This document shows, one piece after another, positions 4,318 through 58,117 of a stretch of 64,000 bases of DNA. A program made the translations under genes and the position numbers. The stretch comes from a virus (taxonomy: Duplodnaviria > Heunggongvirae > Uroviricota > Caudoviricetes), in the IMG/VR virus record IMGVR_UViG_3300037510_000569, positions 62,732-126,731 of that record. One strand, written 5' to 3'. A model generated the notes under the pieces. That model was not told the origin of the DNA and ran no database searches. It worked only from the letters and a program-made list of their open reading frames with translations. The number at the start of each line of letters is the position of its first letter. The stretch's first letter is position 1.

Positions 4318-4400
4318 GGAAGGGCGGCAATTGGTGACGCAGCGCCCCTGCTAAGGGCGTGGGTGTAACAGCCCTGCGGGTTCGACCCCCGCCCCTTCCG
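4318..4400 (+). tRNA. tRNA-Ser(GCT), class II
   Basis: Acceptor ggaaggg/cccttcc, anticodon stem cgccc/gggcg, loop ctGCTaa, T-arm gcggg-ttcgacc-cccgc. Confidence 0.7.
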
Positions 4401-4402
4401 CT

Positions 4403-5944
4403 TCAGCCGTCGTACCTCCAAGCGGCCGGGTTGATCGAGCGAGGGCGTCGGCCGCCTTCTTTGACGGAGACCATGCCGTTAGCTTGGCGGCTGTAAACGA
4501 CTCCGCGCGTTCCATCTACTCCTCGGACGATCGGGTCCCCTTTCTCCCAGTTTTCGGGGAGCCTCTTGTCGAGCTTCACCCTCTTTACCTTCTTCGTCGG
4601 CTTGCGCTTCATTACAGCCGATGGCGTGGTCGTGGCAGGACTCTCCGGGAGCGCCAGAGCGGGCAGGTGCATCGCCAGGGAAGCCGTGCGATCGGCGTAG
4701 CGGAAGACGGCTGCGGTGTTCTCCGGCACCGTCTGCGGGACATTCGCTTCCGGGGTGACGACGATCGCCGCCGCGGGGCCGACGACGAAGACGCCAGACT
4801 CTTTCATTCGGGCGACGACACGCCCGCCAGCCCGGTATTCGGCCATGTCCGCCACATCCACGTTGCTGTTGAAGCCAGTCGCCCAGACCACGAGGTCGTA
4901 GCGAGCACCGTCGACGTAGGCACCCTCGAAGGCTACGCCCGAGCTGTCAGCGCGCCTCCGGATGGGCTTCACCCTGGCGTCGGTACCGTCGATGTCCGTG
5001 GGCAGCAGTCGAGCGATGCCCTGGTAGCGGGAGCGGTTGTTTTCCTTCCAGCCCGCACGGAACGCGCAGCTTTCCGGCACCCCATACCAGTCGATCGTCT
5101 CGATGAAGTCGAGCGACGCGACGGACATCTGGCTCGATGGACCTTGGCCAGTCATTGCCTCGATCACGGTCTTGCCCGCGTCACCAGCACCGATCACGGC
5201 GACTCGTTTCAAGCCCTGAAAGGGGAAAGGCTGATCGAGGCTGGCCAGGAACTGTGGGTAGCTCATCATCCGCTCGCCGTCCATCTCGGCGGGTCCCTTG
5301 GGTTCCCCGAGACCAGTCGCGTAGATCACGCGGGCGGTCTTGATCGTCTTGCCATCGGCGAGCGTTACGCTGGTCGAGTTTGCCTCGACTACCTCTCTCC
5401 CCACGATCACTCGTGCGTTCATTGCGAGCGCCGTGCGGATGGAGAAGGAGAGCGCGGAGTTTGGCTGGTACTCGTCGCCGCTCAAGTCGGCAGGCTGAAC
5501 CGGCGCACCAGGCAAGACGTTCAGCGCTTCGCCACGACCGGGGATGCCGAGATTGCCTGGCCGGTTGCGGCTGTTCAGGTAGAAAGTGGAATCACGGCTG
5601 ACCGCGAAGATGCCGCCAGCGCGCGGTTGCGCCTCGATCACGAGCGGTTTCGGATGGCCCTCGGCCACGCGCACCGCGCAGTAGATCGCGGCATGAAGAC
5701 CAGCGCCGACAACGATCTCCGGTGCCTCCTGCGGGACGGCGGCGCTGGCCCACATCATGTCGAGCTCTCGGTCGAACATGGCGCGCGCCTGGGGGACAAG
5801 CGCTACGCCAGTGAGTTTGGCGGCGAGGGTCGAGTCGAACTCTGGCGCGCGCGCCATCATTGCCTTTACGCCGTCGTTCATGCTCTTGTCCTGAGCGATT
5901 TTGGACAGGACAGAACCAACGCGGCTGGGGGGTCGGTCGGGCAT
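4403..5944 (-). CDS. FAD/NADPH-dependent class-B flavoprotein monooxygenase (N-hydroxylating or FMO-like) with a basic C-terminal extension
   Basis: Two dinucleotide-binding motifs (VVGAGLHAAIY and VAVIGAGDAGKTV) plus the ATG motif DLVVWATGF; own RBS gaggagaaagagaATG; start-associated motif about 36 nt upstream. Confidence 0.75.
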   Translation of the reverse strand: MPDRPPSRVGSVLSKIAQDKSMNDGVKAMMARAPEFDSTLAAKLTGVALVPQARAMFDRELDMMWASAAVPQEAPEIVVGAGLHAAIYCAVRVAEGHPKPLVIEAQPRAGGIFAVSRDSTFYLNSRNRPGNLGIPGRGEALNVLPGAPVQPADLSGDEYQPNSALSFSIRTALAMNARVIVGREVVEANSTSVTLADGKTIKTARVIYATGLGEPKGPAEMDGERMMSYPQFLASLDQPFPFQGLKRVAVIGAGDAGKTVIEAMTGQGPSSQMSVASLDFIETIDWYGVPESCAFRAGWKENNRSRYQGIARLLPTDIDGTDARVKPIRRRADSSGVAFEGAYVDGARYDLVVWATGFNSNVDVADMAEYRAGGRVVARMKESGVFVVGPAAAIVVTPEANVPQTVPENTAAVFRYADRTASLAMHLPALALPESPATTTPSAVMKRKPTKKVKRVKLDKRLPENWEKGDPIVRGVDGTRGVVYSRQANGMVSVKEGGRRPRSINPAAWRYDG

Positions 5945-5979
5945 CTCTTTCTCCTCTCGGCCCGAGTATCTCGGGCGTT

Positions 5980-6008
5980 CCTTGGTCGGGTGCCAACAAA
6001 GTTATCAG
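5980..6008 (-). promoter_or_regulatory. conserved start-associated motif copy (minus strand) upstream of the monooxygenase gene
   Basis: Reverse complement reads ctgataactttgttggcacccgaccaagga, followed by hairpin cccgagatactcggg and then the RBS. Confidence 0.5.
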
Positions 6009-6238
6009 GATTCAGACCACGCAGCTACGGCTTATTTGCTTCCCTTCCTGCAGCGCTGATAGCCTTTCTCGTATGGCCCTGTCGCCGACACGAATTACCT
6101 CGAATCCCACGGCGACTACCCGAGGGCGAAAGCCCCAGGGCCAACCCCGCCAGCTTTAGCCGGGCGCTCCTGCGGCGACCCGGCATCAGCTTCCCGCTCC
6201 GGGTTGGTCACATCCGACGCAGCAGTCATAGCTGCCAC

Positions 6239-6592
6239 ATGCCTTACGCCGACCCAGATGCACAGAGGGCTTGCAACCGTCGCTGGTATCAGCGCAATCA
6301 AAGGAAGGAGATCGAAAGAGCCAGAGCACGCAAGATCGAATTGAGGGCGTTCATCCAGTCCCAGAAGGAAGCGCCCTGTGCCGACTGCGGCGGCGAGTTT
6401 CCACCAGTCGCTATGGACTTCGATCATCGCGAGGTAGCCGAGAAGGACATGGCGGTGGCAACGCTCGCGGGCTATGGCAGCAAGACGAGAATCGAAAGAG
6501 AGATAGCGAAGTGCGACTTGGTCTGTGCCAACTGCCATCGGGTCAGGACAGCAGAGCGCAGATCGGAGTCAGAACTTTCCGCGGTGGTGTAA
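6239..6592 (+). CDS. HNH endonuclease (117 aa)
   Basis: CADCGG...DFDHRE...CANCH motif; the true start is an internal ATG of ORF 4484..6592, whose upstream part is antisense to the monooxygenase. Confidence 0.7.
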   Translation: MPYADPDAQRACNRRWYQRNQRKEIERARARKIELRAFIQSQKEAPCADCGGEFPPVAMDFDHREVAEKDMAVATLAGYGSKTRIEREIAKCDLVCANCHRVRTAERRSESELSAVV

Positions 6593-6824: not shown

Positions 6825-7352
6825 ATGAGGACATTCGACAAGGGCAATATCGCTGAGGCCGCTTGGGTCTCCTTCTTTACTCGCTGCGGCGATGTCGTGC
6901 TTCTGCCTTTCGGCGGCGGCGCACGCTATGACCTCGCAGTTGATCGAGGGAACGGACTGGAGCGGGTGCAGGTCAAGACCGCTCGCCGTCGGGGAGAAGT
7001 GCTGCGAATCCCAACCTGTTCCGTTATGCCCGACCGAAGCCAGAGCAAGCGCTATACGGCCGAGGAAATTGATCTCCTCGCGGCATATTGGCCGGAGGAG
7101 GATCGCTACTTCCTGATCGCCGTAGACGATCTGCCAGCGACGGAGATCAACTTGAGGCTCAATCCGGCGAAAAACGGACAACAAGCTGGTATCCGAGATG
7201 CCCTGGCCTACGAGGTCGTACCGATCCCTAAGATTTCCCTTTCTGCCCGTCGAGCTCACGTTGGCTTCGAGCACTCCCCTCGTAAGGGAGAGGACGCAGG
7301 TTCGATTCCTGTGACGGGCTCTGCGGCTTCGGCCGCCACCCTGGACGGGTAG
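6825..7352 (+). CDS. PD-(D/E)xK-type nuclease-like protein; its 3' end runs through tRNA-Thr
   Basis: ATG 2 nt after tRNA-Gly; motifs YDLAVD ... LERVQVKT (D..ExK); the C-terminal about 35 aa are junk-like and overlap the tRNA at 7245..7320, so the true end is unclear. Confidence 0.45.
   Translation: MRTFDKGNIAEAAWVSFFTRCGDVVLLPFGGGARYDLAVDRGNGLERVQVKTARRRGEVLRIPTCSVMPDRSQSKRYTAEEIDLLAAYWPEEDRYFLIAVDDLPATEINLRLNPAKNGQQAGIRDALAYEVVPIPKISLSARRAHVGFEHSPRKGEDAGSIPVTGSAASAATLDG
7245..7320 (+). tRNA. tRNA-Thr(CGT)
   Basis: Acceptor gcccgtc/gacgggc, D-stem gctc/gagc, anticodon stem ctccc/gggag, loop ctCGTaa, T-arm gcagg-ttcgatt-cctgt. Confidence 0.7.
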
Positions 7353-18408: not shown

Positions 18409-21400
18409 GTGCTGCGCGAACCCGTTTTCGAGCCGATCGAGCAAGCGGCTGACGAGGACGATCCCGAGGGCCTGCTTGGCACCGCGGCCGGGCGTCTCCT
18501 CGAGGGTGCCGCCCACAGCGGTGCGATGGTCGCGCTCTACCCCGACGCCGCCACGGCGGCCGAGCTTGCCATCTCTGACGGCGAGGACGCCGACGAGCTC
18601 CACCTGACCCTCGCCTTCCTGGGCGAAGCGGAGAAGCTGAACCTCACGCGGGCGCTCCAGGTCGTCGCCGAGTGGGCCGCAGCCTGCCCGCCCAGCCTCT
18701 CGGGTGAGATCAGCGGCGTCGGCCAGTTCGCCACGGGTCCGGTCACCTACCTCTCAGTCGATCTGCCGGATCTCCCGCCTCTGCGCGAGCGTCTGGTCGA
18801 TGGGTTCGATGCAGCAGGGGTGCCGCCGAAGCGCGACCACGGCTTCACGCCCCACATCACGCTCGACTACGCGCGGCGCCGGCCCAAGATGGACAGGCCG
18901 ATCCCGATCCGCTTCGACCGCGCGACCCTGGCCTGGGCCGGTTCCCAGTTCAGCTTCCCGCTCGGCGTCCGCTCGGCGGTGCCCCTGCAGGAGGCCCGGA
19001 TGCTCCTGGAGGGCAAATGGGACGCGAGCCTCCACCCGCGCTGGCCGAAAGGCACCCCGCGCGCGGGCGAGTTCATGCGCGTGGGCCAGCGCTTCATCGG
19101 CTCCGACGGCAAGGAGTGGCAGATCGCCCACATCGCCGGGGGCAAGGTGATCGCCAACCGCGCCGAGGGCAAATACGCCGAGACGGAGACGGGGGTCTTC
19201 CATCCCGAGAAGGTCAAGGGCGGCAAGTCACCCCTCGAAGGCGGCGAGGAGACCCACGTCATCGCCGATGTGAAGAAAGAGGCCGCACCGCGCAAGGTCC
19301 AGGGAGGCAAGGGCAAGGGCGCGACGGTGCCGATCGTCGATCCCTACGTGGACGGGTCAAGCCACGACGCCTCTCTGCCGGTTCCGGCTGGCTCGAAAGT
19401 CAGCGCCGAGGAGTGGAAACGCTTCGGCAAGATCGACCAGGAGCACTACGCCGAGTTGATGCAGCGCTTCGGCAAATACAGCCCTGGCAAGGCCAAGTCG
19501 ATGATCGACGAGGCCTACAAGGACTACGAGGCCGAGATTCAGGCGATCGTGAAGAACGCCTACAGCGCCCAGTACGGCTCCTCCTCGGGCTTCACGCTGA
19601 GCCTCACCGGCGTCTTCAAGGCGATCACCGGCCAAGACAAGAAGGAGCTGGCGAAGCTCGACGCCCAGCGCCAGCGCGCCCTCGAGCTTCAGGGCCGCCA
19701 CAAAGACGTGATCGCCTGGGACCTCTACAACCGCACGCGCTCCCCTGACGTGGCGGTCTTCCACAAGTCCAACGACCCGCCGAGCTACTGGCAGGAGTTC
19801 ATCCAGGGCAACCGGCCGGTGATGTCGGGGCTGTCGCAGTCGTTCAACTTCGGCGCGAACTTCGGCTTCGGCTCGAACACGCTGGCGACCCCGCTGGCGA
19901 TCCGCCACGTCCTGATGTCCTCCTACTCCGCCCAGCCGATCCCCGGTCAGACCCACTTCGCCGGCGAGCTCGAGATCAGCGTCGCCGAGCAGCTCAAGAT
20001 CGACAACCGCTCGATCACCTTTTCGCTGCACGACATCACCGCCAACCAGAAAAAGTGGCTGATGGGAGTCACCAAGGCACCCACCGGCGGGGACACCGTA
20101 GAGCGCTTCAAGGAAGCGCTGCAGTCCGGCGAGATGCTGCCGACCCCGCCCGCCCCGCCGGACATTCAGATGCAGGGGGAGGGGCAGAAGCTCTGGATCG
20201 ATCCGCCGCCGGAGGCCGCCGATTACATCGAGCGCTTCGCCGACAAACTGCCGGCGCAGCAGGGGTCTCCGCTGGACCCCGGCAAACTCGACAAGAAAGG
20301 TCCGTGGGCCTTCAAGGATGCGGGCGGCTTGCCGAAAGCGACCGTCGCCAAGGAGTCCGAATACAAGCCCGGCGACTACATGCTGGGGCTGAAGGGCACG
20401 CTCTACATCGTCGTCGAGGACCCCGGCGACCCGACCGGCTTCGGCTTGCGCTACGTCAAGATCGAGAACGGCAAGTTCAGCGGGGAGTCCTACAACTTCG
20501 AGGGCGGCGGCGGCAATCAGTACTTCAAGCTCAGCGCCCACTACGAGCTCCCCGACCCCCACAAAGAAGCGAAAGCATCCGACCTCTTCGACCCGCACGC
20601 CTGGGTCAACGGCGAGAAAGAGAAGTTCGTCGGCAAGCTGGAGCCGGGCGACAAGTTCAAGGTCAACGGCAGCCCCTACGAGGTCAAAGCCCAGCTGAGC
20701 GGCGCCCAGACCCAGATCACCGACCTCACCAGCGGCAAGGTCGGCACGATCAACACCGACTACAAGACCCATGTCCTGGTGCCGAAGGAGGGCTACGTGC
20801 CCGAGGCACCCGAAGGGGAGAAGCTGGCGCCGGCCAAAGGGATGACGCTCGCCTACGACGGCACAAAGCACGTCGTGACGACGATCCTGAAGGACGGCAC
20901 CGTCAAGGCGAAACCGACCGGCGGCGGCAAAACGGTGGCGATCGCAGCAGACGATCCTGAGCTGGACAACCTCTATGACCCAACCGCCCACAAGATCGGG
21001 GCCAAAATCAAGGCCGGCGACCTCGCCGTCGGCCAGCTCTTCCACGGCGGCCGCGGTTCCACGCAGCGCCCCTACGTCATCACGGGCGCGGAGGGCAACA
21101 AGGTCACCTGGCGATCGCTGGACACTGGCGAGGAGGGCATCTTCACCAAGGCCAAGCAGGTCCGACTGCTCGATGACGCGGAAGCGCCAGAGCCGGAGGC
21201 AGAGCAGCCGAGCGTCGAGCCGATCTCGCACGACCAACTCAAGCCGGGGGACTCAACGACGATCTCCAACTTGAAGGCGGGCGACTTCTTCTCGGTCGAT
21301 GGCGAAGTCTTTAACGTGGTCTGGGAGCCGCCGACGCTCGAGGACAACGCCGGCGTGGCCAAGGTGATGCCATCAGGCGAGATCGGCGCGGGGAGCAGCG

Positions 21401-22713
21401 AGGGCGCTTACCCGGACAAGCTCGTCACCTACACGGGCACTGCGCCGCCGCTACCCGCCACCGATATGCCCGAGGGCGGATTCCCCGACCTAGTGGCCGA
21501 GGGCGGATTTGACCCCTACAAGTCGAAGTACGGCAGCGGCGGCAAATACACCCACGACAAGCTCGGCGAAATGGTCCCCGGCACGATCTTCCGCGACAAG
21601 GGCGGCAAGCTCTGGAAGATCAAGGAGGCCGACCACGCCGTCATCGTCACCGATGGCAATGTCCTCTACACCGCCGACGCTTCGCTGCGCGGGCGGGTCG
21701 TCCAAGCGGAGTTCGTCGACACGACCGGCCCGGTCAAGGGCCCGCACGCCGATCCTCAAGAGGTCGCCGCAGCGGAGGGCTTGGCCCCGAACAGCAAGGG
21801 CCTGACGATGGCTGATCTGCCAGCCGGTGCGACCGTCTTGGTCAACGGCGAGGTCCAAGTGGTCAAGGCGCCCGCCGAGCCCGGCGACGAGGTGAGCGCG
21901 CTGGCTGCTTCCACCGAACTCGCAGACGGAGGCGAGAACCTTCTGGGTCCGGCGATCATCCCCGATCAGATCAAGCTGCCACCGAAGGTGAAATCGTTGG
22001 GAGCCCTCAAGGAAGGCGACACCTTCGCAGGCGCGGACGGTAAGCAGCACATCGTCGTAGCCAAGTCCGTCGATGGCGACGTAGTCGTTAAGACGCCAGG
22101 AGGTCAGCTGTGGAAGCTCCCGCCCTCGACCCCGCGCGACGCGGTCGACGCCGGTGTCGATGGTGGCCTCGCTGCGCCGCCGAAACCGGCACCCCCACCA
22201 GGTGATTTGAAAGTCGCCGACCTCGAGGACGGCGCGGTATTCATGGGTGCAGGGGGCGAGCTCAATACGGTCGTCGCCAAGACGGTTGACGGCGGGATCG
22301 TCGTGATGAAGGGCGACAAGCCCGGCGGCGAGATGACGACCCTCCCCGGCACCGCGGTCATCAAGGCAAGCCAAGTCGATGTGGAAGCCGAGGGCGGCGT
22401 AGCGGGTATCCCGTCCGAGGGCGAGTGGAGCGAGGCAGTGCAGCAGGCTCTCGGCGAAGCAGGGGTCACGATGGAGGAGGTCCCGGTGGCGAGTGGGATC
22501 GAGGGCTACAAGTCCAAATGGGGCTCTGGCGGCAAGTACCAGCACTACATGCTGAGCGAGCTCGAGCCCGGCGCCGTCTTCGTCGACAAGCAGGGCAACA
22601 GCTACACCGTCGTCGGCGGCGGGCCGAAGGGGTCGATCCTGGTGCTCGGCTCAGCCAGCGGCCTGCTCAGCCTCGCGCCGGCGGGCCTGCGCGCGAAACG
22701 CCTCGAAAGCTGA
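18409..22713 (+). CDS. giant 1434-aa multidomain protein: N-terminal 2H phosphoesterase (LigT/CPDase-like), putative R-S-ExE ADP-ribosyltransferase region, then many repeats of a roughly 40-aa small beta domain
   Basis: Two HxTx motifs (HLTLAF and HITLDY) about 85 aa apart; YNRTRS...SGLSQSF...AGELEIS spaced like ART R / STS / ExE; repeats of L(K/E)xGDxF..G..Y.VV...DG.V.V and GYKSK(Y/W)GSGGKY. Confidence 0.7.
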   Translation: MLREPVFEPIEQAADEDDPEGLLGTAAGRLLEGAAHSGAMVALYPDAATAAELAISDGEDADELHLTLAFLGEAEKLNLTRALQVVAEWAAACPPSLSGEISGVGQFATGPVTYLSVDLPDLPPLRERLVDGFDAAGVPPKRDHGFTPHITLDYARRRPKMDRPIPIRFDRATLAWAGSQFSFPLGVRSAVPLQEARMLLEGKWDASLHPRWPKGTPRAGEFMRVGQRFIGSDGKEWQIAHIAGGKVIANRAEGKYAETETGVFHPEKVKGGKSPLEGGEETHVIADVKKEAAPRKVQGGKGKGATVPIVDPYVDGSSHDASLPVPAGSKVSAEEWKRFGKIDQEHYAELMQRFGKYSPGKAKSMIDEAYKDYEAEIQAIVKNAYSAQYGSSSGFTLSLTGVFKAITGQDKKELAKLDAQRQRALELQGRHKDVIAWDLYNRTRSPDVAVFHKSNDPPSYWQEFIQGNRPVMSGLSQSFNFGANFGFGSNTLATPLAIRHVLMSSYSAQPIPGQTHFAGELEISVAEQLKIDNRSITFSLHDITANQKKWLMGVTKAPTGGDTVERFKEALQSGEMLPTPPAPPDIQMQGEGQKLWIDPPPEAADYIERFADKLPAQQGSPLDPGKLDKKGPWAFKDAGGLPKATVAKESEYKPGDYMLGLKGTLYIVVEDPGDPTGFGLRYVKIENGKFSGESYNFEGGGGNQYFKLSAHYELPDPHKEAKASDLFDPHAWVNGEKEKFVGKLEPGDKFKVNGSPYEVKAQLSGAQTQITDLTSGKVGTINTDYKTHVLVPKEGYVPEAPEGEKLAPAKGMTLAYDGTKHVVTTILKDGTVKAKPTGGGKTVAIAADDPELDNLYDPTAHKIGAKIKAGDLAVGQLFHGGRGSTQRPYVITGAEGNKVTWRSLDTGEEGIFTKAKQVRLLDDAEAPEPEAEQPSVEPISHDQLKPGDSTTISNLKAGDFFSVDGEVFNVVWEPPTLEDNAGVAKVMPSGEIGAGSSEGAYPDKLVTYTGTAPPLPATDMPEGGFPDLVAEGGFDPYKSKYGSGGKYTHDKLGEMVPGTIFRDKGGKLWKIKEADHAVIVTDGNVLYTADASLRGRVVQAEFVDTTGPVKGPHADPQEVAAAEGLAPNSKGLTMADLPAGATVLVNGEVQVVKAPAEPGDEVSALAASTELADGGENLLGPAIIPDQIKLPPKVKSLGALKEGDTFAGADGKQHIVVAKSVDGDVVVKTPGGQLWKLPPSTPRDAVDAGVDGGLAAPPKPAPPPGDLKVADLEDGAVFMGAGGELNTVVAKTVDGGIVVMKGDKPGGEMTTLPGTAVIKASQVDVEAEGGVAGIPSEGEWSEAVQQALGEAGVTMEEVPVASGIEGYKSKWGSGGKYQHYMLSELEPGAVFVDKQGNSYTVVGGGPKGSILVLGSASGLLSLAPAGLRAKRLES

Positions 22714-25074: not shown

Positions 25075-25222
25075 TCCGCCGGGCCGAAGCAGGTTGGTTA
25101 TCGGCTCATAACCGGGTGGCCGCGGGTTCGAGTCCCGTCGCACCTCCGCCTTCGGGCCACGGGTGCGTAGCTCAGTTGGTAGAGCACCTAAACGCCAATC
25201 GGCAATCCCACGCTCGGCACTT
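25075..25222 (+). ncRNA. Y-RNA-like unit 5 with T-arm-like and D-arm-like elements
   Basis: GGGCCGAAGcaggttGGTTATC ... cgcgggttcgagtcccg ... gtgcgtagctcagttggtagagcac ... caatcCCACGCTCGGC. Confidence 0.55.
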
Positions 25223-25259
25223 CCTCGACGCGACACCGGACCCTTTGCTAGTGTCGCGC

Positions 25260-25330
25260 GTGGGCGGGCCGAAGCCCTTCGGTTATCTCTTACGGAAAAG
25301 ACCCGATCGGCAACCCCACGCTCGCTCGTC
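25260..25330 (+). ncRNA. Y-RNA-like unit 6 (minimal)
   Basis: GGGCCGAAGcccttcGGTTATCTC ... caaccCCACGCTCGCT; ends about 30 nt before the Ro60 start. Confidence 0.5.
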
Positions 25331-25360
25331 TCTTGTACTCCACTGACCGGGAGGACCCCA

Positions 25361-26974
25361 ATGGGCCAGTATCTGCGCCAGCACTCCACGCGCTCCACGC
25401 CGCAGTCCGAGCCGATGAGCTCAGACCAGCGCCAGAACCCGGCCGGCGGCTTCGCTTGGCCGGTCGATGACTGGACGCGCGCGCGTCGCTTCCTGATCCT
25501 CGGTGCCGAGGGTGGCACCTACTACGTCGGTCAGCGCGAGCTCGTGAAGGACAACGCTGCGGCGCTTGAGCGCTGCCTCGCCGAGGACCCGATGCGCACG
25601 ATCGAGATGATCTGCGACATCAGCGACGGCGGTCTGGCGAAGTCCAACGACCCGGCGCTGTTCGCGCTGGCGATGGCGGTTGGCTCAAACGACCTGGAGA
25701 CGCGCCGCGAGGCTTGGCGTCGTCTGCCCCAGGTCGCCCGCATCGGCACGCACCTCTTCCACTTCGTTGCCTACATGCAGCAGTTCCGCGGCTGGGGGCC
25801 GCTGGCTCGCCGCGGCGTCAGCGCTTGGTACGAGGGCAAGGAAGCCGACAAGCTCGCCTACCAGCTCGTCAAGTACCGCCAGCGCGACGGTTGGAGCCAC
25901 CGCGACGTTCTGCGCCGCGCGCACCCCAAGGCACCGAGCGAACTGCACAAGGCGCTCTACGACTTCGCCTGCGGCCGGGAGTTCGGCGGCGGCGTGATCG
26001 AGGGCGAGGGAGGCGAGCGAGCTCTCAACATGATCGAGGGCTACCTGGCGGCGCAGAAGGCCGCAAGCCCGGCCGAGTCGGCGCGGCTGATCGGCGAGCA
26101 CGACCTGCCGCGCGAGGCGGTCAAGACCGACCACCTGACCTCGCCCGAGGTCTGGGAGGCGCTCCTGCGCAACATGCCGATCACGGCGATGATCCGCAAC
26201 CTCGCCAACCTGACTCGCGTGGGGATCATCAAGCCGATGAGCGACGGCGAGAAGCTCGTGGCAGAGCGTCTCGGCGACGAGGAGCGCCTGCGCAAGGGCC
26301 GTGTACATCCGATCGCGGTTCTCTCGGCGCTGACGATCTATGAGCGCGGCCATAGCGCCCTCGGTCGGGGCGAGGACTGGACGCCGTCGCAGAAGGTTGT
26401 TGACGCTCTCGATGCCGCCTTCTATACGGCCTTCGGGTCGGTGGAGCCCGCGAACAAGCGCACGCTGATCGCCGTCGATGTCTCCGGCTCGATGGGCTGG
26501 GGTGACATCGCTGGCGTTCCGGGGCTGACGCCGCGAGTCGGCGCCGCTGCGATGTCTCTGGTGACGGCGTCGACGGAGCCCGATCACGCGATCACCGCCT
26601 TCTCGCACACGATGGTCCCGGTCTCGGTCTCGCCGCGTCAGCGGATGGACGATGTGCTCCGCACCTTCGATGCTCTGCCGATGGGCGGCACCGACTGCGC
26701 GCTGCCGATGATCTACGCGGAAGAAATGGACCTCGAGATCGACACCTTCATCGCCTACACCGACAGCGAAACGTGGGCTGGGGAAGTCCACCCGGCTCAG
26801 GCCCTGCGCACCTACCGCGAGAAGACTGGCATCAACGCCCGCCTGATCGTCGTCGGCATGGTGTCGAGCGAGTTTTCGATCGCCGACCCCAACGACGGGG
26901 GGATGCTCGATGTCGTCGGCTTCGACAGCGCCGCGCCGGCGACGATGAGCGCCTTCTCCCGCGGCGAGGTCTAG
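25361..26974 (+). CDS. rsr: Ro60 (Rsr) orthologue: TROVE domain plus vWA domain with MIDAS motif
   Basis: RFLILGAEGGTYY, DGWSHRDVLRRAH, MPITAMIRNLANLT, RVHPIAVLSALTIYERGHS, LIAVDVSGSM (DxSxS), PMGGTDCALPMIYA, GMLDVVGFD; start set to the ATG with RBS gggagga because the upstream ORF extension overlaps the Y-RNA array. Confidence 0.85.
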   Translation: MGQYLRQHSTRSTPQSEPMSSDQRQNPAGGFAWPVDDWTRARRFLILGAEGGTYYVGQRELVKDNAAALERCLAEDPMRTIEMICDISDGGLAKSNDPALFALAMAVGSNDLETRREAWRRLPQVARIGTHLFHFVAYMQQFRGWGPLARRGVSAWYEGKEADKLAYQLVKYRQRDGWSHRDVLRRAHPKAPSELHKALYDFACGREFGGGVIEGEGGERALNMIEGYLAAQKAASPAESARLIGEHDLPREAVKTDHLTSPEVWEALLRNMPITAMIRNLANLTRVGIIKPMSDGEKLVAERLGDEERLRKGRVHPIAVLSALTIYERGHSALGRGEDWTPSQKVVDALDAAFYTAFGSVEPANKRTLIAVDVSGSMGWGDIAGVPGLTPRVGAAAMSLVTASTEPDHAITAFSHTMVPVSVSPRQRMDDVLRTFDALPMGGTDCALPMIYAEEMDLEIDTFIAYTDSETWAGEVHPAQALRTYREKTGINARLIVVGMVSSEFSIADPNDGGMLDVVGFDSAAPATMSAFSRGEV

Positions 26975-28205: not shown

Positions 28206-28498
28206 CGGTGATGATCGGACTCCCGACGCCTGCGGCCCAGATTCGGGAGGAGCTCGCTCGATTGCGGCGCAAGGGCCTGAGTTTCGAGATCGCCTGGCGG
28301 CGAGCACTTGAGCGCGTGAAGTGGCCCGAAGAGAAAGGGCCGCGCGACGAATGGAAGGCGATCCTCGCCGACGGCAGGCCGATGTGGGAGGACGCCTACC
28401 TCCGCAACGGCAACAAGCCGAAGGGCATGGAGGCGATCACCGGCTTCTTCCTCTCAGACGCCTCGGGCGAGCGCCAACCGCTCGAGGTCCTCGCCTAG
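28202..28498 (+). CDS. hypothetical protein
   Basis: ATGA overlap; 98 aa. Confidence 0.45.
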   Translation: MTVMIGLPTPAAQIREELARLRRKGLSFEIAWRRALERVKWPEEKGPRDEWKAILADGRPMWEDAYLRNGNKPKGMEAITGFFLSDASGERQPLEVLA

Positions 28499-29673
28499 CG
28501 CTTCACCCGCCGGAACCAGAAGGGCAGCAGGTACCCGATGCCGGTCGCGCAGGCGATGTAGAAGCCGGAGAAGAACACGCTGTGATCTGAGACGCTCATG
28601 GCGAAGTTCCACACGTAGCTGACGAAGAAGAGCAGGCAGAAGAACAGCATCACCGCGGAGACCGCCCTGTCGTACTTCAGGATGAAGCGGTCACTGCGGT
28701 CGAGCTTGATGTAGACCACAGCAGGGTGTTTCTTCGAGTGTCCGGGAGGGCAGACCTCGCCGACGTACATCACCATTCCCTCGCGCTCCTCCGGCGTCTT
28801 GTCGCCAGAGAGGACCTCGATCTCGTAGTTGCCGCGGGCGCGCGGCCTGCCATTGATACGAATGAGACCGCCTTCGCTCAGCGTCATCGGCGGCGCCCAG
28901 AAGATGTCGTTGGGGGTGGTGTCGAGCTCTGGCCGCATCTCCTCAGGAACGACATCGCCGTCTGTCTGGGACTCAACCCACGCGCGCATTGCTTTGGGCT
29001 TCGGCTCGATCACCTCGACTCCGTAGCGCCCGACCGCGCGTTTGAGCGCCGCCGCCAGGTCGTAGCTCGCCCCCTTCTCCTCGATCATCGCTTGCACCGG
29101 GGTACAGAGTGCGACGATTTCGGCGTACTCGGCTCGGATGCCCGCGTGGTGGACCTCCATGTCACCCCAGGCTCGGACGATGCCCGCGACCGGGATTGCT
29201 TCGCTCTTGCCGAAGCGGACCAGCTCGACATCACGCGGGTCGTGGTAGGCGTAGAGGCCGCAGCCGCAGTTGGCGAGGGGAGCGCGGTGCCCGTCGGCGA
29301 AGTCGGCCACGCAGACAGCGACATTGCGACCAGCCTCCCAAGTGGTGTTCCCCTGTCCCTGCGAGGTCAGGTATCCAGCTGCGTCAAGTTGCCAAGCGCG
29401 GAAACCGTAAACCGCCCCGACGAGATCCGGCGGAACCTCCGGCCGCGCCGGCGGCTCGAACTTCAGAGAGGCCGCTTCCCACTCTTCGATCGAAGTCTGC
29501 TCCCAATTGGTGCGCAAGTCGGTGACGCTGAGGACCAGCGTTTCGCCCATCCCACCAACCCGAGCAGGCAAGGTCTGTACGACCACGACCCCAGGAGCGA
29601 CAGGGACATGCTGAATTACGCGGACGAGCTTTAGCGGGTCCGCTGCGTTGCGCCAGTAGGTGCTCTCCAGCAC
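28495..29673 (-). CDS. paralog-family protein (FRAW..C..CGCGLYA..GIRAEYA domain) with C-terminal TM segments
   Basis: Minus-strand ORF with GTG start; third copy of the domain seen at 11598 and 14063; hydrophobic C-terminus LFFCLLFFVSYVW and FYIACATGIGYLLPFWF. Confidence 0.55.
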   Translation of the reverse strand: MLESTYWRNAADPLKLVRVIQHVPVAPGVVVVQTLPARVGGMGETLVLSVTDLRTNWEQTSIEEWEAASLKFEPPARPEVPPDLVGAVYGFRAWQLDAAGYLTSQGQGNTTWEAGRNVAVCVADFADGHRAPLANCGCGLYAYHDPRDVELVRFGKSEAIPVAGIVRAWGDMEVHHAGIRAEYAEIVALCTPVQAMIEEKGASYDLAAALKRAVGRYGVEVIEPKPKAMRAWVESQTDGDVVPEEMRPELDTTPNDIFWAPPMTLSEGGLIRINGRPRARGNYEIEVLSGDKTPEEREGMVMYVGEVCPPGHSKKHPAVVYIKLDRSDRFILKYDRAVSAVMLFFCLLFFVSYVWNFAMSVSDHSVFFSGFYIACATGIGYLLPFWFRRVKR

Positions 29674-29926: not shown

Positions 29927-30739
29927 GTGGCAGACCCGTTTCGCGTCTATGGCCCCGAGGAGTGCGGCCAGGACGGCTATCCCTTCATCTGGCATCGCAA
30001 CGACGGCTCGCTCGACGCTCTGATCGCAGAGCTAGAAATCGCTGAGACCTCTGGCGTCAAGCACATCGTCCGCGCCCAGGCTGCGCACCGCTGTCTGCGC
30101 TGCAACCACCCCTTCGTGGTCGGGGAGTCGGGAGTGATGGAGGGTCCTCAGGCCGAAGCTAAGTCCTGGGCGGCCGAGATGGGCGTCGATGTCGAGGTCC
30201 TCGATGAGGTCTTCGCCGACATCGGCGTGCCCGGCCTGACGCGCGAGCAGGAGATGAAAGCCCTTGAGCGCGCGCGGCGGATCAACTGGTCACGCTGCGA
30301 CAAGCTCTGTACCCACGGTGGCCCGATCCGGGCGGCGTGGGAGAACAAGGAGACCGGCGAGACCGAAAAAGGCGATACCTGGTCGCCGACCAGCGTCGCC
30401 ACCGCCGGCGAGCTTCATCAGGAGTGGCTCGGCAAGGGCAGGATCGAAGCCGCCTGGCGCATCCTCACCGTCCACCACCTCGACGAGGTGAAGGCGAACC
30501 TGCGCTGGTGGAACCTAGTCGCGCTCTGCCAGCGCTGCCACCTCCTGATCCAGCGCAAGGTGACGATGGACCACCCCTGGCCATGGGAGCACTCGGACTG
30601 GTTCCGACCCTACGCTGCGGCTTGGTACGCGCTGAAGTATCGCGGCGAAGAGCTGAACCGGCTCGAAACGCTCGGCCGCCTTGAGGAGCTGCTGGCGCTC
30701 GGCCAGCGCGAAGAGTCCGTAGAGAGGATGCCGCTTTGA
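29927..30739 (+). CDS. HNH endonuclease with an N-terminal CxxC domain
   Basis: GTG after ccaaggag; HHLDEVKANLRWWNLVALCQRCHLL HNH core; HRCLRCNH. Confidence 0.65.
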   Translation: MADPFRVYGPEECGQDGYPFIWHRNDGSLDALIAELEIAETSGVKHIVRAQAAHRCLRCNHPFVVGESGVMEGPQAEAKSWAAEMGVDVEVLDEVFADIGVPGLTREQEMKALERARRINWSRCDKLCTHGGPIRAAWENKETGETEKGDTWSPTSVATAGELHQEWLGKGRIEAAWRILTVHHLDEVKANLRWWNLVALCQRCHLLIQRKVTMDHPWPWEHSDWFRPYAAAWYALKYRGEELNRLETLGRLEELLALGQREESVERMPL

Positions 30740-31530
30740 GCGTCCCCAGCGCCCTGCTCGACGAGCACCCGCCGATGGCGGAGTGGAGCATCCTGCTCGC
30801 CTACCGCGGCTCGATCGCGCACGGCATGTACGAGCCCAACGACATGCCGACCTCGACCGACGACAAAGACCTGATCGGAGTCTGCGTGCCGCCGCTCGAC
30901 CACTACGTCGGCTTCCGCGAGTTCGGCAACCAGCGCACCTACGAGGTGATGAGCGACCCCTGGGACATCGTGGTCTACGAGGCGACCAAGGCGATCAAGA
31001 TGCTAGCCGACGGCAACCCCAATGTCCTCAGCTTTCTCTGGCTGCCCGAGGACCTTTACCTCTCCGTCTCGTCGGCGGGGCGGCGCTTGATCGACTCCCG
31101 CGACATCTTCGCCGCTCGCTCGACCTACTTCCGCTTCATTGGCTACGCGCGCGAGCAGATGCGCAAGATGGAGAGCGGCGCCTACCTCGGCTACATGGGC
31201 GAGAAGCGCAAGCGCTTGGTGGAGGCTTTTGGCTACGACACCAAGAACGCCTCGCACCTGATCCGCATCCTGCGCATGGGGATTGAGTTCCTCGACGACG
31301 GAACGATGCGAGTTCAACGCCAGGACGCCGCCGAACTGATGGCGATCAAGCATGGCGGCTGGCCGCTGGAGAAGGTGAAGGCGGAGGCTGAGCGTCTCTT
31401 CGAGCTGGCCGCAGAGTCCCATGTGCGATCGCCTCTTCCCGACGAGCCAGATCGCGCTCGCGTCAATTCCCTGGCGGTCCAAGTCGTCCTCGAGGCGCTG
31501 ACCGAACGGGCCGAGCTCCCCAAGACCTGA
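30736..31530 (+). CDS. predicted nucleotidyltransferase (Pol-beta-like GS...DxD fold, pfam10127-like)
   Basis: LAYRGSIAHGMYEPNDMPTSTDDKDL; TTGA overlap start, or an alternative ATG at 30775. Confidence 0.5.
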   Translation: MSVPSALLDEHPPMAEWSILLAYRGSIAHGMYEPNDMPTSTDDKDLIGVCVPPLDHYVGFREFGNQRTYEVMSDPWDIVVYEATKAIKMLADGNPNVLSFLWLPEDLYLSVSSAGRRLIDSRDIFAARSTYFRFIGYAREQMRKMESGAYLGYMGEKRKRLVEAFGYDTKNASHLIRILRMGIEFLDDGTMRVQRQDAAELMAIKHGGWPLEKVKAEAERLFELAAESHVRSPLPDEPDRARVNSLAVQVVLEALTERAELPKT

Positions 31531-32773: not shown

Positions 32774-33622
32774 CTATTTCGCGGCGGCGAGGCTGGCCTC
32801 CAGCACATCGGCCACCTTGTCGCTCTGGACGGCGTCGGCCGTCGCCGTCACCGGCACCTCGATTGCCTCGCCCGCGGCGGCCTGCTCGACCAGCTCGCGC
32901 TTACGGTCGATCGCGGCGTCGATCGGCGCGTCCCAGTCGCCCGCGTCAACCTCCATGAGGGTGAGGACGACCTTGCGCGCTTTCTCGACCTGCGGTTGCT
33001 CGACCTGCGCGACCTGATGCGCCAGGACCGCCTCGTCGGGCTCCCGCACTTCTGCGGCGAAGGTCAGGGTGTTGAGGACGAGGCACCCTTTCTCGGCGTC
33101 GGCGTAGACCACGCCGAGTTTCTGGCGCGACCGGGCGGTGAACTTGACCCGCAGGGCGAGCCGCTGTTTGTCGGCTTTCGTCTTGCCCTTCTGGGGTAGC
33201 AGAGCGCGGTAGATCAGGTTGTAGACCTTGTGCGCGCCGGATTTGGCGGGGACCTGTAGGTAGTAGAGGCCGGTCGCCCGCTCGAACGGGATGTCCTCGT
33301 AGGGCACCGCTCTTTCGACCCGCATATCGACCAGCTTGGTCGCCTCCTCGATTGCCTCGATCTGCTCCTCGGGGATCGGCTTGAACTGGTCGCCGACGCG
33401 GACCCCGCGCTGACGCTCGGCGTAGTCGAAGACCTCGCCCGTCGCTTTGTCGACGTATTGGGTCTCGTACTCCGCGCCGCTCGGTGCCGCACCGTCGTAC
33501 TTCACGTCCACCGAGCCGGTCGCTTTGCAGATCTGCACCGGGAAGTGGAGCAGGGGAACATCGGTCTCCGTAGCGGCGTCGAAGCTGGTGGTGATGACGA
33601 GATCGTTGTTGGTGCCCTTCAT
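32774..33622 (-). CDS. ku: Ku protein (NHEJ DNA-end-binding)
   Basis: 282 aa; resembles bacterial/mycobacteriophage Ku (core beta-barrel region plus C-terminal extension) from memory; RBS and start-associated motif directly upstream. Confidence 0.75.
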   Translation of the reverse strand: MKGTNNDLVITTSFDAATETDVPLLHFPVQICKATGSVDVKYDGAAPSGAEYETQYVDKATGEVFDYAERQRGVRVGDQFKPIPEEQIEAIEEATKLVDMRVERAVPYEDIPFERATGLYYLQVPAKSGAHKVYNLIYRALLPQKGKTKADKQRLALRVKFTARSRQKLGVVYADAEKGCLVLNTLTFAAEVREPDEAVLAHQVAQVEQPQVEKARKVVLTLMEVDAGDWDAPIDAAIDRKRELVEQAAAGEAIEVPVTATADAVQSDKVADVLEASLAAAK

Positions 33623-33685: not shown

Positions 33686-34099
33686 TTAGGCAGAGCGCTT
33701 TAGCTCGCGCAGGCGGGCTGTCGCCTGCTCTCGGTAGGCAAGCTCGGAATCCGTGAGCTTACGACCACCAGAGCCATAAGTGAGGATCAGGTCTGCCAGA
33801 ACTCCAGCCTCCGCCTTCTTAACGACCAGATAGGGCTGTATCGCGTCAAGTACCTCACGAACACCCTTAGCCCCCTGCACTGACCAAGCGTAAACAGGAC
33901 GGTGCTCGCCCTTGCCTTTGCAGCGCTGGTAGACAGACCCGCCGAATATGCCTTGAAGCTTCTTCAGTGCAGCGAGGTTCGTATTGCCGACCGTGATTCG
34001 TGGCATATGCCGCTGGCGAGAAGCCAGATTCCGATGAACATCGAGACATCCCTCACCGTCGATGAAGCCAGCGGCCCATGCGCGGTCAGTCTCTCGCAT
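33686..34099 (-). CDS. LAGLIDADG homing endonuclease (single-motif type)
   Basis: AWAAGFIDGEGC motif; ATG at 34099 chosen, or alternatively TTG at 34162; sits between the divergent ku and ligase genes. Confidence 0.65.
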   Translation of the reverse strand: MRETDRAWAAGFIDGEGCLDVHRNLASRQRHMPRITVGNTNLAALKKLQGIFGGSVYQRCKGKGEHRPVYAWSVQGAKGVREVLDAIQPYLVVKKAEAGVLADLILTYGSGGRKLTDSELAYREQATARLRELKRSA

Positions 34100-34137
34100 G
34101 GTCAGGCAGCCTACTGGCTGCGATCCAGCCAAATAAG

Positions 34138-34167
34138 TGCTAACTTTCTTGGCACCGACCAAGGGGA
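34138..34167 (+). promoter_or_regulatory. full start-associated motif copy before the ligase gene
   Basis: gctaactttcttggcaccgaccaagggga, 4 nt before the ATG. Confidence 0.55.
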
Positions 34168-34171
34168 AGCA

Positions 34172-35095
34172 ATGAGCAAGACCGTAGCAATTCCTGCCGC
34201 ACCGACTTCACCGATTGATCTCGTCCAGAAGGCTGAGACCAAACAAGGAATGAACCCAGAGCAGTTAGGCGACCACTGGACGATGGAGCCCAAGTGGGAC
34301 GGCTGGCGCTTGCTCGCCCATGTGACTGAGACCGGCGTGCATCTCTACACGCCCACCGGCAACGTCCAGGACGGGAAGCTCCTGGAGATAGAGGCCGAGC
34401 TTTCCCGGCTCCCGGCTGGAACCTGGATCGACGGCGAGGCGGTCGCCCTGATGCTCGACGGCGACATGGTGGTCCATGAATGGAACGCGGTCCAGAAATG
34501 CCTCGGTTGCTCTGACCTCACCAAGGCTCGCGCCCGTTCTGGCCCGATCACTTTCGTCGCCTTCGACCTGATCTCCCACGCAGACATCGACGCGCGCTCA
34601 CTGCCCTTCGTCAAGCGGCGGGACCTGCTGGAGCGCGTCTTGGACCAGCACTCCTGGGAGCGGGTGATCCTGACCCCTCAGGTCGCGCCGACCGACGAGC
34701 ACCTCGCCTCCTTCATCGCCCAGGGCTTCGAGGGCGGCGTTGCGAAGTCCTTGACCGCCCCCTACGCGAGCGGCCAGCGGGGACAGGGGCAGATCAAGTT
34801 CAAGCCTCAGGCGACTGACGACTTCGTCGTGATGGGCTTCAAAGAGGGTGAGAACGGCTTCACTGGGTTGATCGGCGCGATCGTCTTTGGCGCCTACGAG
34901 AACGGGGAGCTTGTCGAACGCGGCCGGTGCTCAGGGATGGATATGGCAACGCGCGTGCGGATTTCCAAGGACCGTGACAGCTACCTCGGCAATGTGCTGG
35001 AGGTCGCCCACATGGGTTTCATCGGGGCTGGCTACCGCCACCCACAATTCAAGCGTTGGCGCCCAGACAAAGCGCCAGCGGAATGTGTCGTCTAG
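34172..35095 (+). CDS. ATP-dependent DNA ligase (LigD ligase-domain type)
   Basis: Motif I EPKWDGWR (KxDGxR), DGEAV (III), FVAFDL, EGGVAK (IV), QIKFK (V); 307 aa. Confidence 0.8.
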   Translation: MSKTVAIPAAPTSPIDLVQKAETKQGMNPEQLGDHWTMEPKWDGWRLLAHVTETGVHLYTPTGNVQDGKLLEIEAELSRLPAGTWIDGEAVALMLDGDMVVHEWNAVQKCLGCSDLTKARARSGPITFVAFDLISHADIDARSLPFVKRRDLLERVLDQHSWERVILTPQVAPTDEHLASFIAQGFEGGVAKSLTAPYASGQRGQGQIKFKPQATDDFVVMGFKEGENGFTGLIGAIVFGAYENGELVERGRCSGMDMATRVRISKDRDSYLGNVLEVAHMGFIGAGYRHPQFKRWRPDKAPAECVV

Positions 35096-55282: not shown

Positions 55283-56601
55283 GCGCCCGCGCCAACAACG
55301 GCAAGCAGGGTCGAGGCCGCAACAAGCGCGACCACCTCCCCAACTACTGGCAGCGCCCGGCCGCCGACCTCAGCTTCGGTGAGGAGAACTTCCGCGTCAC
55401 GGCTTTCCGCCCGGAGCGAAAGAGCGCTGACGAGCGAGTCGTCTCGCTGGACGCCTATGTCACCGGGCTCTCATGGGAAGACACCGGGCCGATTCTCACC
55501 GGCTCGATGGTCCTCCAGAAGGGTCGCGGTAAACGCCCCCTGGCGATCAATGAGGGGCACCGCATCCGCCTCGAGGTTGCCCCTGAGCTCGGGGGCCGAT
55601 ACCAGGTGGTCTGGGAGATGCGTATCACCGACTCGGGGATCACCGCCTCCTCTGGGACACACGAATACCAGCTCGCCGACGAGCTCGCCTGGCTGCAGAA
55701 ATCGCGCGATGACTGGCAGTTCCGCAAATCGAAGAACAAGAAGGGCGACAAGAAGACCAAGCGGCCAAACGGCTGGTTGGCCCATCAGATCGCCGCCGAG
55801 GTCTGTCGCCGCTACGGAGTGAAAGTAGGGAAGCTCGCCAAGGGGACGAAACGGATCAACAACCTGACCGAGCACAACGCCTCGCCGCTGGACATCATCC
55901 TAAAGGCCTACAAGCTTGAGCGTCAGCACTCTGGCCGCCGCTTCGTCGTCAGGATGACCGCAGGCAAGCTCGAGGTCGTCGCACTGCGACGTTCCAAGAG
56001 CCTCCTGCTGCTCGGTGAGACGCTGATCGAGGCGAGTATCCAGCGCTCCCTGCGCAAGGCTTTCGCCACTGCTGCACATGTGCGTGCGACGGTCAAGGAC
56101 GGCAAAAAACAGAAGCACAAAAAGCTCGAGGTCGATGTCGTCGCCGACCGCGCCTCCAAGCGCTACGGCTACATCCACAAGACGATCCGGCTTGACGACC
56201 CCGTCCATTCCAAGGCCGAGGCGCGCAAACTCGCCAAGCGCGAACTGGCGAAAACCATGAGGCCAAACCGCGAAGTGACGATCGAACACTCCGGCATCGC
56301 CACCTTGCGCCGCGGTGACGCTGTGAAGCTCCGACTGCCCGAACTGGGAGTCGTGGAAATCGTCTACGTCAAGTCCGTATCTCATAGCGTCAGCGCCGGC
56401 TCGTACAACATGAGCGTGACCTGTCGCTTCTCGGACCCCTACATCGACAAAAAGGGGAAAGAAATCCGCAAGAAGCGCTGCGAGGCGGCGCGCAAAAGCG
56501 ATCGTCGCCAGCCGGACTTCTGCAGTGGGAATGAGGAAAGGCCTCAGCCCCACCGCGCGCAGAGTCGATCCGATCAAGCCCGCGCGGGGAGTGGTCGTTA
56601 A
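55279..56601 (+). CDS. putative baseplate hub / late-control-D-like tail protein
   Basis: ATGA overlap start inside ORF 54841..56601; 440 aa; position after the tape measure. Confidence 0.4.
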   Translation: MSARANNGKQGRGRNKRDHLPNYWQRPAADLSFGEENFRVTAFRPERKSADERVVSLDAYVTGLSWEDTGPILTGSMVLQKGRGKRPLAINEGHRIRLEVAPELGGRYQVVWEMRITDSGITASSGTHEYQLADELAWLQKSRDDWQFRKSKNKKGDKKTKRPNGWLAHQIAAEVCRRYGVKVGKLAKGTKRINNLTEHNASPLDIILKAYKLERQHSGRRFVVRMTAGKLEVVALRRSKSLLLLGETLIEASIQRSLRKAFATAAHVRATVKDGKKQKHKKLEVDVVADRASKRYGYIHKTIRLDDPVHSKAEARKLAKRELAKTMRPNREVTIEHSGIATLRRGDAVKLRLPELGVVEIVYVKSVSHSVSAGSYNMSVTCRFSDPYIDKKGKEIRKKRCEAARKSDRRQPDFCSGNEERPQPHRAQSRSDQARAGSGR

Positions 56602-57659: not shown

Positions 57660-58066
57660 GCGGGCTGAAATCAGCAGCGCAAGCGATCCGCCGAACCTCC
57701 CACGATGTTGCCAATCGCAAGCAGCGGACGATGGTCGCCGTCGTGCGCCAAGTCGCTCCGCTGCGAGTCGAGCTAACCGAATCGCGCATCTTCCTCGATG
57801 AGGACGATCTCAGCCTCGGCCAATGGGTGAGGCGATACGAGAAGGACAAAGGGCTAAAAGTCGGCGACTCTCTGGTGGTTACGCCCCTGCACTCCGGTGA
57901 CTGGGTGGCCTCGGAGGTGCTGAGCTCTCAGGAACCGCCGATCAACGTCGATGCAAACGACAAAAAGCCGAAAATCACCGGCTCCCGCGACAGCAACGCA
58001 GCGCTAAAAGACCTGCTGAAAGCCCTGAATGACCTGGGCATCGTCAAAGACGAAACCACCGCATGA
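57656..58066 (+). CDS. hypothetical baseplate protein
   Basis: GTGA overlap; 136 aa. Confidence 0.4.
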   Translation: MSGLKSAAQAIRRTSHDVANRKQRTMVAVVRQVAPLRVELTESRIFLDEDDLSLGQWVRRYEKDKGLKVGDSLVVTPLHSGDWVASEVLSSQEPPINVDANDKKPKITGSRDSNAALKDLLKALNDLGIVKDETTA

Positions 58067-58115
58067 AAGTCAATCAAAGGCAAACGCAGCAAGGGGACCT
58101 AGACTGGAGCGCAGC
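58065..58115 (+). promoter_or_regulatory. conserved structural-operon motif, copy 3 (variant)
   Basis: gaaagtcaatcaaaggcaaacgcagcaaggggacc...gcgcagcag before the ATG at 58118. Confidence 0.4.
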
Positions 58116-58117
58116 AG

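Follow-up and report, generated by a model that had tools for sequence, protein, structure and literature searches.

A two-Rossmann flavoprotein family carried by large soil phages and by conjugative elements of Micromonosporaceae

Flavoenzymes of the Pyr_redox_2-type superfamily are usually read as housekeeping redox enzymes or as biosynthetic tailoring enzymes. The described members that come closest to the protein discussed here are SMFMO of Stenotrophomonas maltophilia, a type II (bacterial) class B flavin-containing monooxygenase (FMO; PDB 4a9w/4c5o), the YpdA/Bdr bacillithiol-disulfide reductases (PDB 3d1c, 7a76), and the low-Mr thioredoxin reductases (TrxR) together with TrxR-like ferredoxin-NADP+ reductases (FNRs; PDB 3cty, 2zbw, 3ab1, 5twb); the N-hydroxylases PvdA, SidA, NbtG, MbtG, KtzI and DesB are structurally less similar to it than these groups. 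This protein is encoded in a 64,000-nt stretch of phage DNA, the window (positions 62,732 to 126,731 of IMG/VR record IMGVR_UViG_3300037510_000569), by a minus-strand gene at 4403..5944 that starts with ATG and specifies 513 aa with Rossmann domains for flavin adenine dinucleotide (FAD) and NAD(P)H. What is new here is the family to which it belongs, an uncharacterised, mobile-element-restricted group within a known superfamily.

SMFMO shares 18% identity with the phage flavoprotein, which is some 150 to 180 residues longer, carries an N-terminal helical domain, family-specific loops, a linker and a KOW-like domain, and belongs to a family without the FMO motif FxGxxxHxxx[YF]. Identity to the YpdA/Bdr enzymes amounts to 13% to 16%. 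YpdA has a conserved cysteine inside its first GxGxxG fingerprint, whereas the family of the phage protein has no conserved cysteine at all and, if matched by motif position rather than by structural superposition, carries His84 at this place (211 of 227 members). Unlike the low-Mr TrxRs and the TrxR-like FNRs, the phage protein lacks a CxxC motif and has extra domains and insertions. Compared to the N-hydroxylases, which are captured by the Pfam model PF13434, it stays under the cut-off of that model, and no siderophore pathway genes are found around any of the loci.

The start codon is backed by homologs with the same start position, and the codon-position GC of the reading frame (0.65/0.50/0.78 for GC1/2/3) fits a real gene in a genome of 65% GC, the value of the window. 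Together with a Pfam domain, hundreds of homologs and a confident predicted fold (pLDDT 89.2, pTM 0.81), this GC pattern is why we consider the minus-strand frame real. Long antisense open reading frames (ORFs) arise by chance in DNA of such high GC content, and a 702-aa plus-strand ORF at 4484..6592 that runs antisense to the flavoprotein gene was rejected as a shadow ORF of this kind apart from its 3' end, given that it is gene-like in its last 117 codons only.

An exhaustive profile search returned 864, 679 and 419 representatives, each standing for a cluster at 50% identity, at E<=1e-3, E<=1e-10 and E<=1e-30, respectively. Because 419 of them are found at the strictest threshold and the top 150 all span the full length at E<1e-120, the family is discrete at the level of sequence; a word-indexed search retrieved 183 homologs. 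In every source its members are annotated as "hypothetical protein" or, rarely, with the generic "FAD-dependent oxidoreductase", and we found no description of the family or of flavoenzyme counter-defence in the literature. The parts of the protein are laid out as follows:

4403..5944, minus strand: coding sequence of the 513-aa two-Rossmann FAD/NAD(P)H flavoprotein (ORF, Pfam, homologs, codon GC, fold)
5735..5944, minus strand: conserved N-terminal helical extension, aa 1-70, with helices at aa 7-18, 24-30, 39-49 and 51-66
5690..5707, minus strand: GAGLHA, aa 80-85, first dinucleotide fingerprint (FAD), from motif and conservation
5459..5584, minus strand: blocks FYLNSRNRPG ... ALNVLPGAPVQP ... 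EYQxN, aa 121-162, family-specific and nearly invariant
5174..5191, minus strand: GAGDAG, aa 252-257, second dinucleotide fingerprint (NAD(P)H), with G252, D255 and E262 invariant
5024..5035, minus strand: RSRY, aa 304-307, an invariant R-x-R-Y, from conservation
4871..4897, minus strand: DLVVWATGF, aa 350-358, ATG-type motif that ends the NAD(P)H domain, from motif search
4769..4789, minus strand: FVVGPAA, aa 386-392, with G389-P390, from conservation
4559..4654, minus strand: low-confidence linker, aa 431-462, Pro/Ala-rich and then strongly basic (KRKPTKKVKRVKLDKR), from fold and sequence
4406..4558, minus strand: small beta domain, aa 463-513, with KOW/SH3-like fold and pLDDT >90, from fold and structure matches

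When 227 members from phages and conjugative elements are compared, around 30 positions prove invariant or almost invariant. Constraint on this scale speaks for a working enzyme whose pocket is defined, and a decayed or non-catalytic Rossmann protein was rejected on this ground. In the first fingerprint, G80 and G82 are invariant and are followed, beyond H84, by E104 and G110-G111, while D350 and G357 are the sole invariant residues of the ATG-type motif; G389-P390 presumably stands where disulfide reductases have their "GD" FAD motif. Three blocks are specific to the family, namely F-Y-L-N124-S125-R-N127-R128-P-G130, L141-N142-x-x-P145...Q150 and R304-x-R306-Y307, and the conserved residues within aa 121-162 are N124, S125, N127, R128, G130, L141, N142, P145 and Q150. 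The blocks of aa 121-162 may form the substrate or active-site region, and RSRY may bind either the NADPH 2'-phosphate or the substrate. A PDB search with a sub-profile that covers the FAD-domain half, meant to register LNSRNRPG against the "NRYPG" of Baeyer-Villiger monooxygenases (BVMOs) or the "NxPG" of TrxR, gave matches that were not significant and out of register.

The original prediction, made from the sequence of the window alone, had named a GxGxxA fingerprint, a GxGxxG fingerprint and DLVVWATGF, and all three are present (GAGLHA from aa 80, GAGDAG from aa 252 and the ATG-type motif from aa 350). The prediction had further described a basic C-terminal tail as atypical for the enzyme class. 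The basic stretch indeed exists, but what had been taken for a tail consists of a basic linker and, behind it, a KOW/SH3-like domain, which no more than 3 of 212 family members possess (the window protein, P0002 and P0026). This domain superposes at 1.2-2.3 A on many actinophage proteins of 50-70 aa, one of them annotated as KOW. Separately, several homologs (P0123, P0154, P0206, P0041 and P0052) reach 750-1140 aa through C- or N-terminal arrays of small beta-rich repeat modules that are joined by lysine/proline-rich linkers, and a Pfam search of 19 long, fused homologs detected no known domain in the extensions.

The only Pfam model above threshold for the flavoprotein is Pyr_redox_2 (PF07992; 36.9 bits against a cut-off of 26.1), which spans both Rossmann domains at aa 77-404, leaves the N-terminal extension outside, and is matched by 38 of 45 homologs. 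Both GxGxx[GA] fingerprints were found by motif search in 231 of 231 relatives, and a single polypeptide that combines a Rossmann domain for FAD with one for NADPH agrees with the general definition of class B flavoprotein monooxygenases. A profile of the 45 sequences has class B SMFMO (4a9w) as its best match in the PDB (E 4.7e-7), followed by MbtG, NADH oxidase, TrxR, KtzI and PvdA over local segments only. With generic and single-Rossmann models set aside, the Pfam families matched by several members are Lys_Orn_oxgnase (PF13434; 10 of 45 at E<=0.01) and Pyr_redox_3 (8 of 45), and the distant homologs P0124 and P0148 even pass the PF13434 cut-off over about 100 residues. A weak match to OTEMO that bears on the BVMO subclass (E 0.037) is not significant and aligns the GxGxxG...GG region only. 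A disulfide reductase of the TrxR type, which would work through a redox-active CxxC, is excluded by the lack of any conserved cysteine: CxxC occurs in 1 of 231 relatives, and neither of the two cysteines of the phage protein, C89 and C293, is conserved (C89 in 123 of 227).

Comparison of the predicted fold with solved structures gave values of 21.7 for the YpdA-type 3d1c, 20.8 for Bdr 7a76, 20.5 for TrxR 3cty and 20.4 for SMFMO 4a9w, followed by 16-18 for N-hydroxylases (NbtG, Lys 6-monooxygenase, DesB and SidA) and 15-18 for glutathione-reductase-type enzymes. The modelled structure hence places the protein in the TrxR-like/class B neighbourhood, and fold alone is neutral between a monooxygenase and a reductase. 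Foldseek returned only generic matches in the PDB (apoptosis-inducing factor and FNR, with template-modelling scores of ~0.4), and BFVD contains no full-length viral analogue. Likewise, there was no useful match in NCBIfam, nothing below E 0.26 in PHROGs, a merely generic FAD-Rossmann match in PADLOC (E 0.02), and no tblastn match in GenBank phages (E<=1e-5) or PLSDB plasmids (E<=1e-3).

The family appears confined to mobile DNA, that is, to uncultured large soil phages and to conjugative elements of Micromonosporaceae. In IMG/VR, the gene is present on 16 contigs, the longest of 130 kb, and the phage and metagenome loci are phage-like, with long runs of small ORFs in the vicinity of genes for TROVE/Ro60, Clp_N, AAA and DUF932. 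Across bacteria, with one genome per GTDB species, 22 loci were found that all belong to Micromonosporaceae, and a second search seeded with a bacterial member retrieved 442 proteins of which every named source is again Micromonosporaceae. The 19 bacterial proteins long enough to be included in a neighbor-joining tree form one clade. At 14 of the 22 bacterial loci we detected a conjugation or establishment marker (VirB4-like, type IV coupling protein, Replic_Relax, ArdC-N/M78, DUF4192 or Lsr2). The neighbors that are conserved and co-directional at the bacterial loci comprise a VirB4-like ATPase (TraG P-loop/AAA_10), a TrwB/TraD-type coupling protein, Replic_Relax, Lsr2, DUF4192, ArdC-N plus Peptidase_M78, a GGDEF protein and, at six loci, a class A flavoprotein; in bacteria, the flavoprotein gene is cargo of conjugative elements of the type IV secretion type. 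DUF932 is a neighbor in both phage and bacterial loci. The only protein cluster common to diverse loci of both kinds is the flavoprotein itself. The phage gene encodes an intact two-Rossmann FAD/NAD(P)H enzyme of a distinct family that has neither redox-active cysteines nor conserved partner genes.

Some neighbors deserve mention in their own right. At six of the 22 bacterial loci (L006, L009, L012, L013, L016 and L017), a class A flavoprotein is encoded at or near the flavoprotein gene whose closest solved relatives are 6-hydroxynicotinate 3-monooxygenase (E 5e-17) and 2,6-dihydroxypyridine hydroxylase (E 4e-15), which hints at an N-heterocyclic substrate in that subset. Another conserved neighbor (cluster c47; L013 12362-12949, also in L012 and L016) carries a C-terminal "NCGGVC" stretch that, by eye only, resembles PAPS-reductase/DndC-like proteins, and it has no Pfam match at E<=1e-3.

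We favor, at about even chances, a reading in which the protein is a class-B-like NAD(P)H/FAD enzyme of a mobile-element family that oxygenates a host small molecule in an auxiliary or establishment role. For its oxygenase chemistry, pocket, substrate class and role we infer the following course. NAD(P)H would reduce the FAD, the reduced flavin would react with O2 to form a C4a-(hydro)peroxyflavin, and this species would oxygenate a small molecule from the host at a nucleophilic N or S atom. The small molecule may be held in a pocket of the invariant loops N124/S125/N127/R128, N142/Q150 and R304/R306/Y307. The flavoprotein would act alone, without pathway partners, and would serve an auxiliary or establishment function by altering the chemistry of the host in favor of mobile DNA that enters or replicates there. 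We prefer the oxygenase route because the best sequence-profile relatives are class B enzymes, because the non-generic Pfam matches of family members are Lys_Orn_oxgnase and Pyr_redox_3, and because no acceptor protein is conserved nearby.

Several observations weigh against this reading. Neither the FMO motif nor the BVMO fingerprint FxGxxxHxxxW[P/D] is present in any of the 231 relatives, the phage protein itself scores 12.4 bits with PF13434 against a cut-off of 21.3 and does so over aa 196-275 only, and the profile matches to class B enzymes lie mainly over the ATG motif and the second Rossmann region. In addition, PADLOC, PHROGs, NCBIfam and the literature offered no pointer to a substrate, and the suggested benefit to the mobile element derives from distribution and neighborhood. 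By these sequence features, the protein is excluded from the FMO, BVMO and N-hydroxylase subclasses in their current definitions. The original prediction of an N-hydroxylating or FMO-type siderophore or tailoring enzyme has therefore to be narrowed: a class-B-like flavoenzyme in a phage is a reasonable proposition, but the missing fingerprints speak against the FMO type, the PF13434 score against the N-hydroxylase family, and the genomic contexts against a biosynthetic role.

These contexts bear on the idea of a siderophore-type N-hydroxylating monooxygenase, an enzyme that would attach a hydroxyl group to a side-chain amine (of ornithine, lysine or a diamine) as a tailoring step in hydroxamate synthesis. 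The Lys_Orn_oxgnase matches of some family members point in this direction, but no hydroxamate-siderophore biosynthesis genes were found in the window, at 21 phage/metagenome loci or at 22 bacterial loci. With no biosynthetic partner gene in about 40 contexts, we regard such an enzyme as unlikely, and the role of the flavoprotein is most likely not siderophore or natural-product biosynthesis. A serious rival, if clearly a minority view in our estimate, is a TrxR-like NAD(P)H:acceptor reductase without redox-active disulfide, such as a ferredoxin/flavodoxin-NADP+ reductase, an IruO-type ferric-siderophore reductase or a YpdA-like enzyme, that would pass electrons from NAD(P)H via FAD to a host protein, a metal chelate or a low-molecular-weight disulfide. 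It stays serious because the evidence from the fold is neutral. However, the family has no conserved cysteine, no gene for ferredoxin, flavodoxin or another acceptor is conserved beside the flavoprotein gene, the best sequence-profile match is a monooxygenase, and large family-specific insertions as well as the N-terminal helical domain fall outside the structural alignments, which cover some 260 to 290 of the 513 residues.

A further alternative is an NAD(P)H oxidase or redox-takeover enzyme that lacks a specific organic substrate and would turn NAD(P)H and O2 into H2O2 or water, resetting the redox state or the nucleotide pools of the host. Uncoupled class B enzymes behave as NAD(P)H oxidases, the gene stands alone in every context, and the profile matches the NADH oxidases 2bc0 and 2bc1 over aa 348-438. 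However, the catalytic cysteine used by H2O-forming Nox enzymes is absent, and around 15 invariant polar residues in family-specific loops seem more than simple oxidation would require, so we consider this account improbable as well. Still less credit, and in fact very little, goes to a nucleic-acid-directed flavoenzyme that modifies tRNA or DNA. Its appeal comes from the tRNA blocks on either side of the gene, seen in the window as well as in the related phage L028, from the basic linker plus KOW/SH3-like domain, from the lysine-rich linkers and repeated small beta modules of long homologs, and from an RNA-repair toolkit carried by the phages. Yet there are no tRNAs within 8 kb of the gene in L002, L003, L005, L033, L039 and L041, the conjugative-element clade has no tail, the tail domain is confined to the three members named above, and no Pfam or NCBIfam similarity links the protein to known flavin-dependent nucleic-acid-modifying enzymes.

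A more specific role for the favored class-B-like oxygenase would lie in counter-defense or establishment: as a flavin monooxygenase shared by phages and conjugative elements of Micromonosporaceae-type actinomycetes, it would inactivate, by chemical means, a factor with which the host blocks the entry of DNA. In the conjugative elements, the gene lies among anti-restriction and establishment-type genes, and in phages it lies among small ORFs of unknown function. This reading, which we treat as a speculative and rather improbable one, builds on the restriction of the family to mobile elements, on its ArdC, DUF4192, Lsr2 and DUF932 neighbors in conjugative elements, on the small-ORF setting in phages and on the standalone status of the gene. 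It would allow as candidate host factors an anti-phage secondary metabolite, a small-molecule immune signal, or an S- or N-containing modification of DNA or of a metabolite.

At the locus itself, the flavoprotein gene is opposed to almost all other likely genes of the window, which are carried by the plus strand, and it is flanked by the following features:

4318..4401, plus strand: tRNA-Ser(gct), convergent with the flavoprotein coding sequence
5951..5956, minus strand: ribosome-binding site GAGGAG, 6 nt before the flavoprotein ATG
5961..5975, minus strand: perfect 6-bp hairpin CCCGAG-ATA-CTCGGG, directly upstream of the GAGGAG ribosome-binding site

The stop codon (4403-4405) is separated by 1 nt from the end of tRNA-Ser(gct) at 4401, that is, 2 nt from end to stop. 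The opposite orientation, the own ribosome-binding site, the hairpin and the 2-nt distance to tRNA-Ser had all been part of the original prediction and were verified in the sequence. A repeated, start-associated hairpin motif was rejected: the hairpin is unique in the window, with 2 loose matches where ~1 is expected. No sigma-70-like promoter was found within 300 nt upstream of the gene, a result that is uninformative for actinobacterial-type promoters. L028 encodes a 59% identical protein in the same tRNA-gene-tRNA layout on the opposite strand, by which a recent moron insertion is ruled out. Adjacency to tRNAs is seen in the window, in L028 and weakly in L040 and is absent elsewhere; it is a trait of the phage lineage of the window, shared with L028, and not of the family, and the orientation of the gene relative to its neighbors varies between contigs.

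The tRNA array around the gene also contains two nuclease-like genes. A 117-aa ORF (6239-6592, plus strand) lies between the flavoprotein gene and tRNA-Gln, whose start at 6578 it overlaps by 15 nt at its 3' end. By eye it shows an HNH-like CxxC...DH...CxxCH pattern, without a Pfam match at E<=1e-3, and it could represent an endonuclease of the homing type within the tRNA cluster. The second one, an ORF of the PDDEXK_5 nuclease family (6825-7352, plus strand, equal to L001 8593-9120), is located between tRNA-Gly and tRNA-Thr, and its 3' part as called extends over tRNA-Thr (7245-7321) into the start of tRNA-Ile (7343). A further tRNA call, an 89-nt tRNA-Ala(ggc) reported by ARAGORN at 28417-28505 on the minus strand, runs into two ORFs, at the 3' end of one on the plus strand and at the end of another on the minus strand, and may, given its odd length and position, be a false positive.

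The window belongs to a contractile-tailed phage with tail sheath, HK97-type capsid and protease, Ku, an ATP-dependent DNA ligase, a Ro60/TROVE-like protein, a 2H/LigT-like domain, RlaP and 16 tRNAs. Megablast of 20 kb of the window against GenBank phages gave no DNA match, and the tail sheath shares just ~24% identity with its counterparts in Clostridioides and Bacillus phages; the phage is without close cultured relative. Its RNA-repair-type toolkit consists, next to the tRNAs, of plus-strand genes at 18409-22713, 25163-26974 and 30736-31530, the members being a 1434-aa protein with N-terminal 2H/LigT phosphoesterase domain, a Ro60/TROVE-like protein (phrog_850) and RlaP, and TROVE genes are also found near the flavoprotein gene in other phages. 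Genes for a Ku-like protein (32774-33622, minus strand) and the ATP-dependent DNA ligase (33902-35095, plus strand) stand side by side as a module of the non-homologous end joining type. Directly upstream of the capsid genes, a 1468-aa protein (36235-40641, plus strand) has several repeats that match endolysin/peptidoglycan-binding PHROGs. Toward the end of the window, at 56000-64000, GC drops from ~0.67 to 0.53-0.61, and few ORFs there pass the GC3 filter.

As an enzyme class, the flavoprotein is ordinary; unusual are the size, strong conservation and missing annotation of its family and its distribution over phages and conjugative elements. With at least 864 clusters at 50% identity, and with 442 close relatives in the conjugative-element clade, the family is under strong purifying selection, and its distribution is typical of genes in the conflict between mobile elements and their hosts. 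The hosts of the conjugative elements are a group of antibiotic-producing actinomycetes, and the family hints at which host an uncultured lineage of ~130-kb soil phages may have. The identity of the substrate would annotate hundreds of "hypothetical proteins" in the genomes of Micromonospora, Actinoplanes and Dactylosporangium. It could also reveal new host-takeover chemistry or a new kind of counter-defense, and the latter, if true, would make the family the first flavin-oxygenase class of anti-defense protein.

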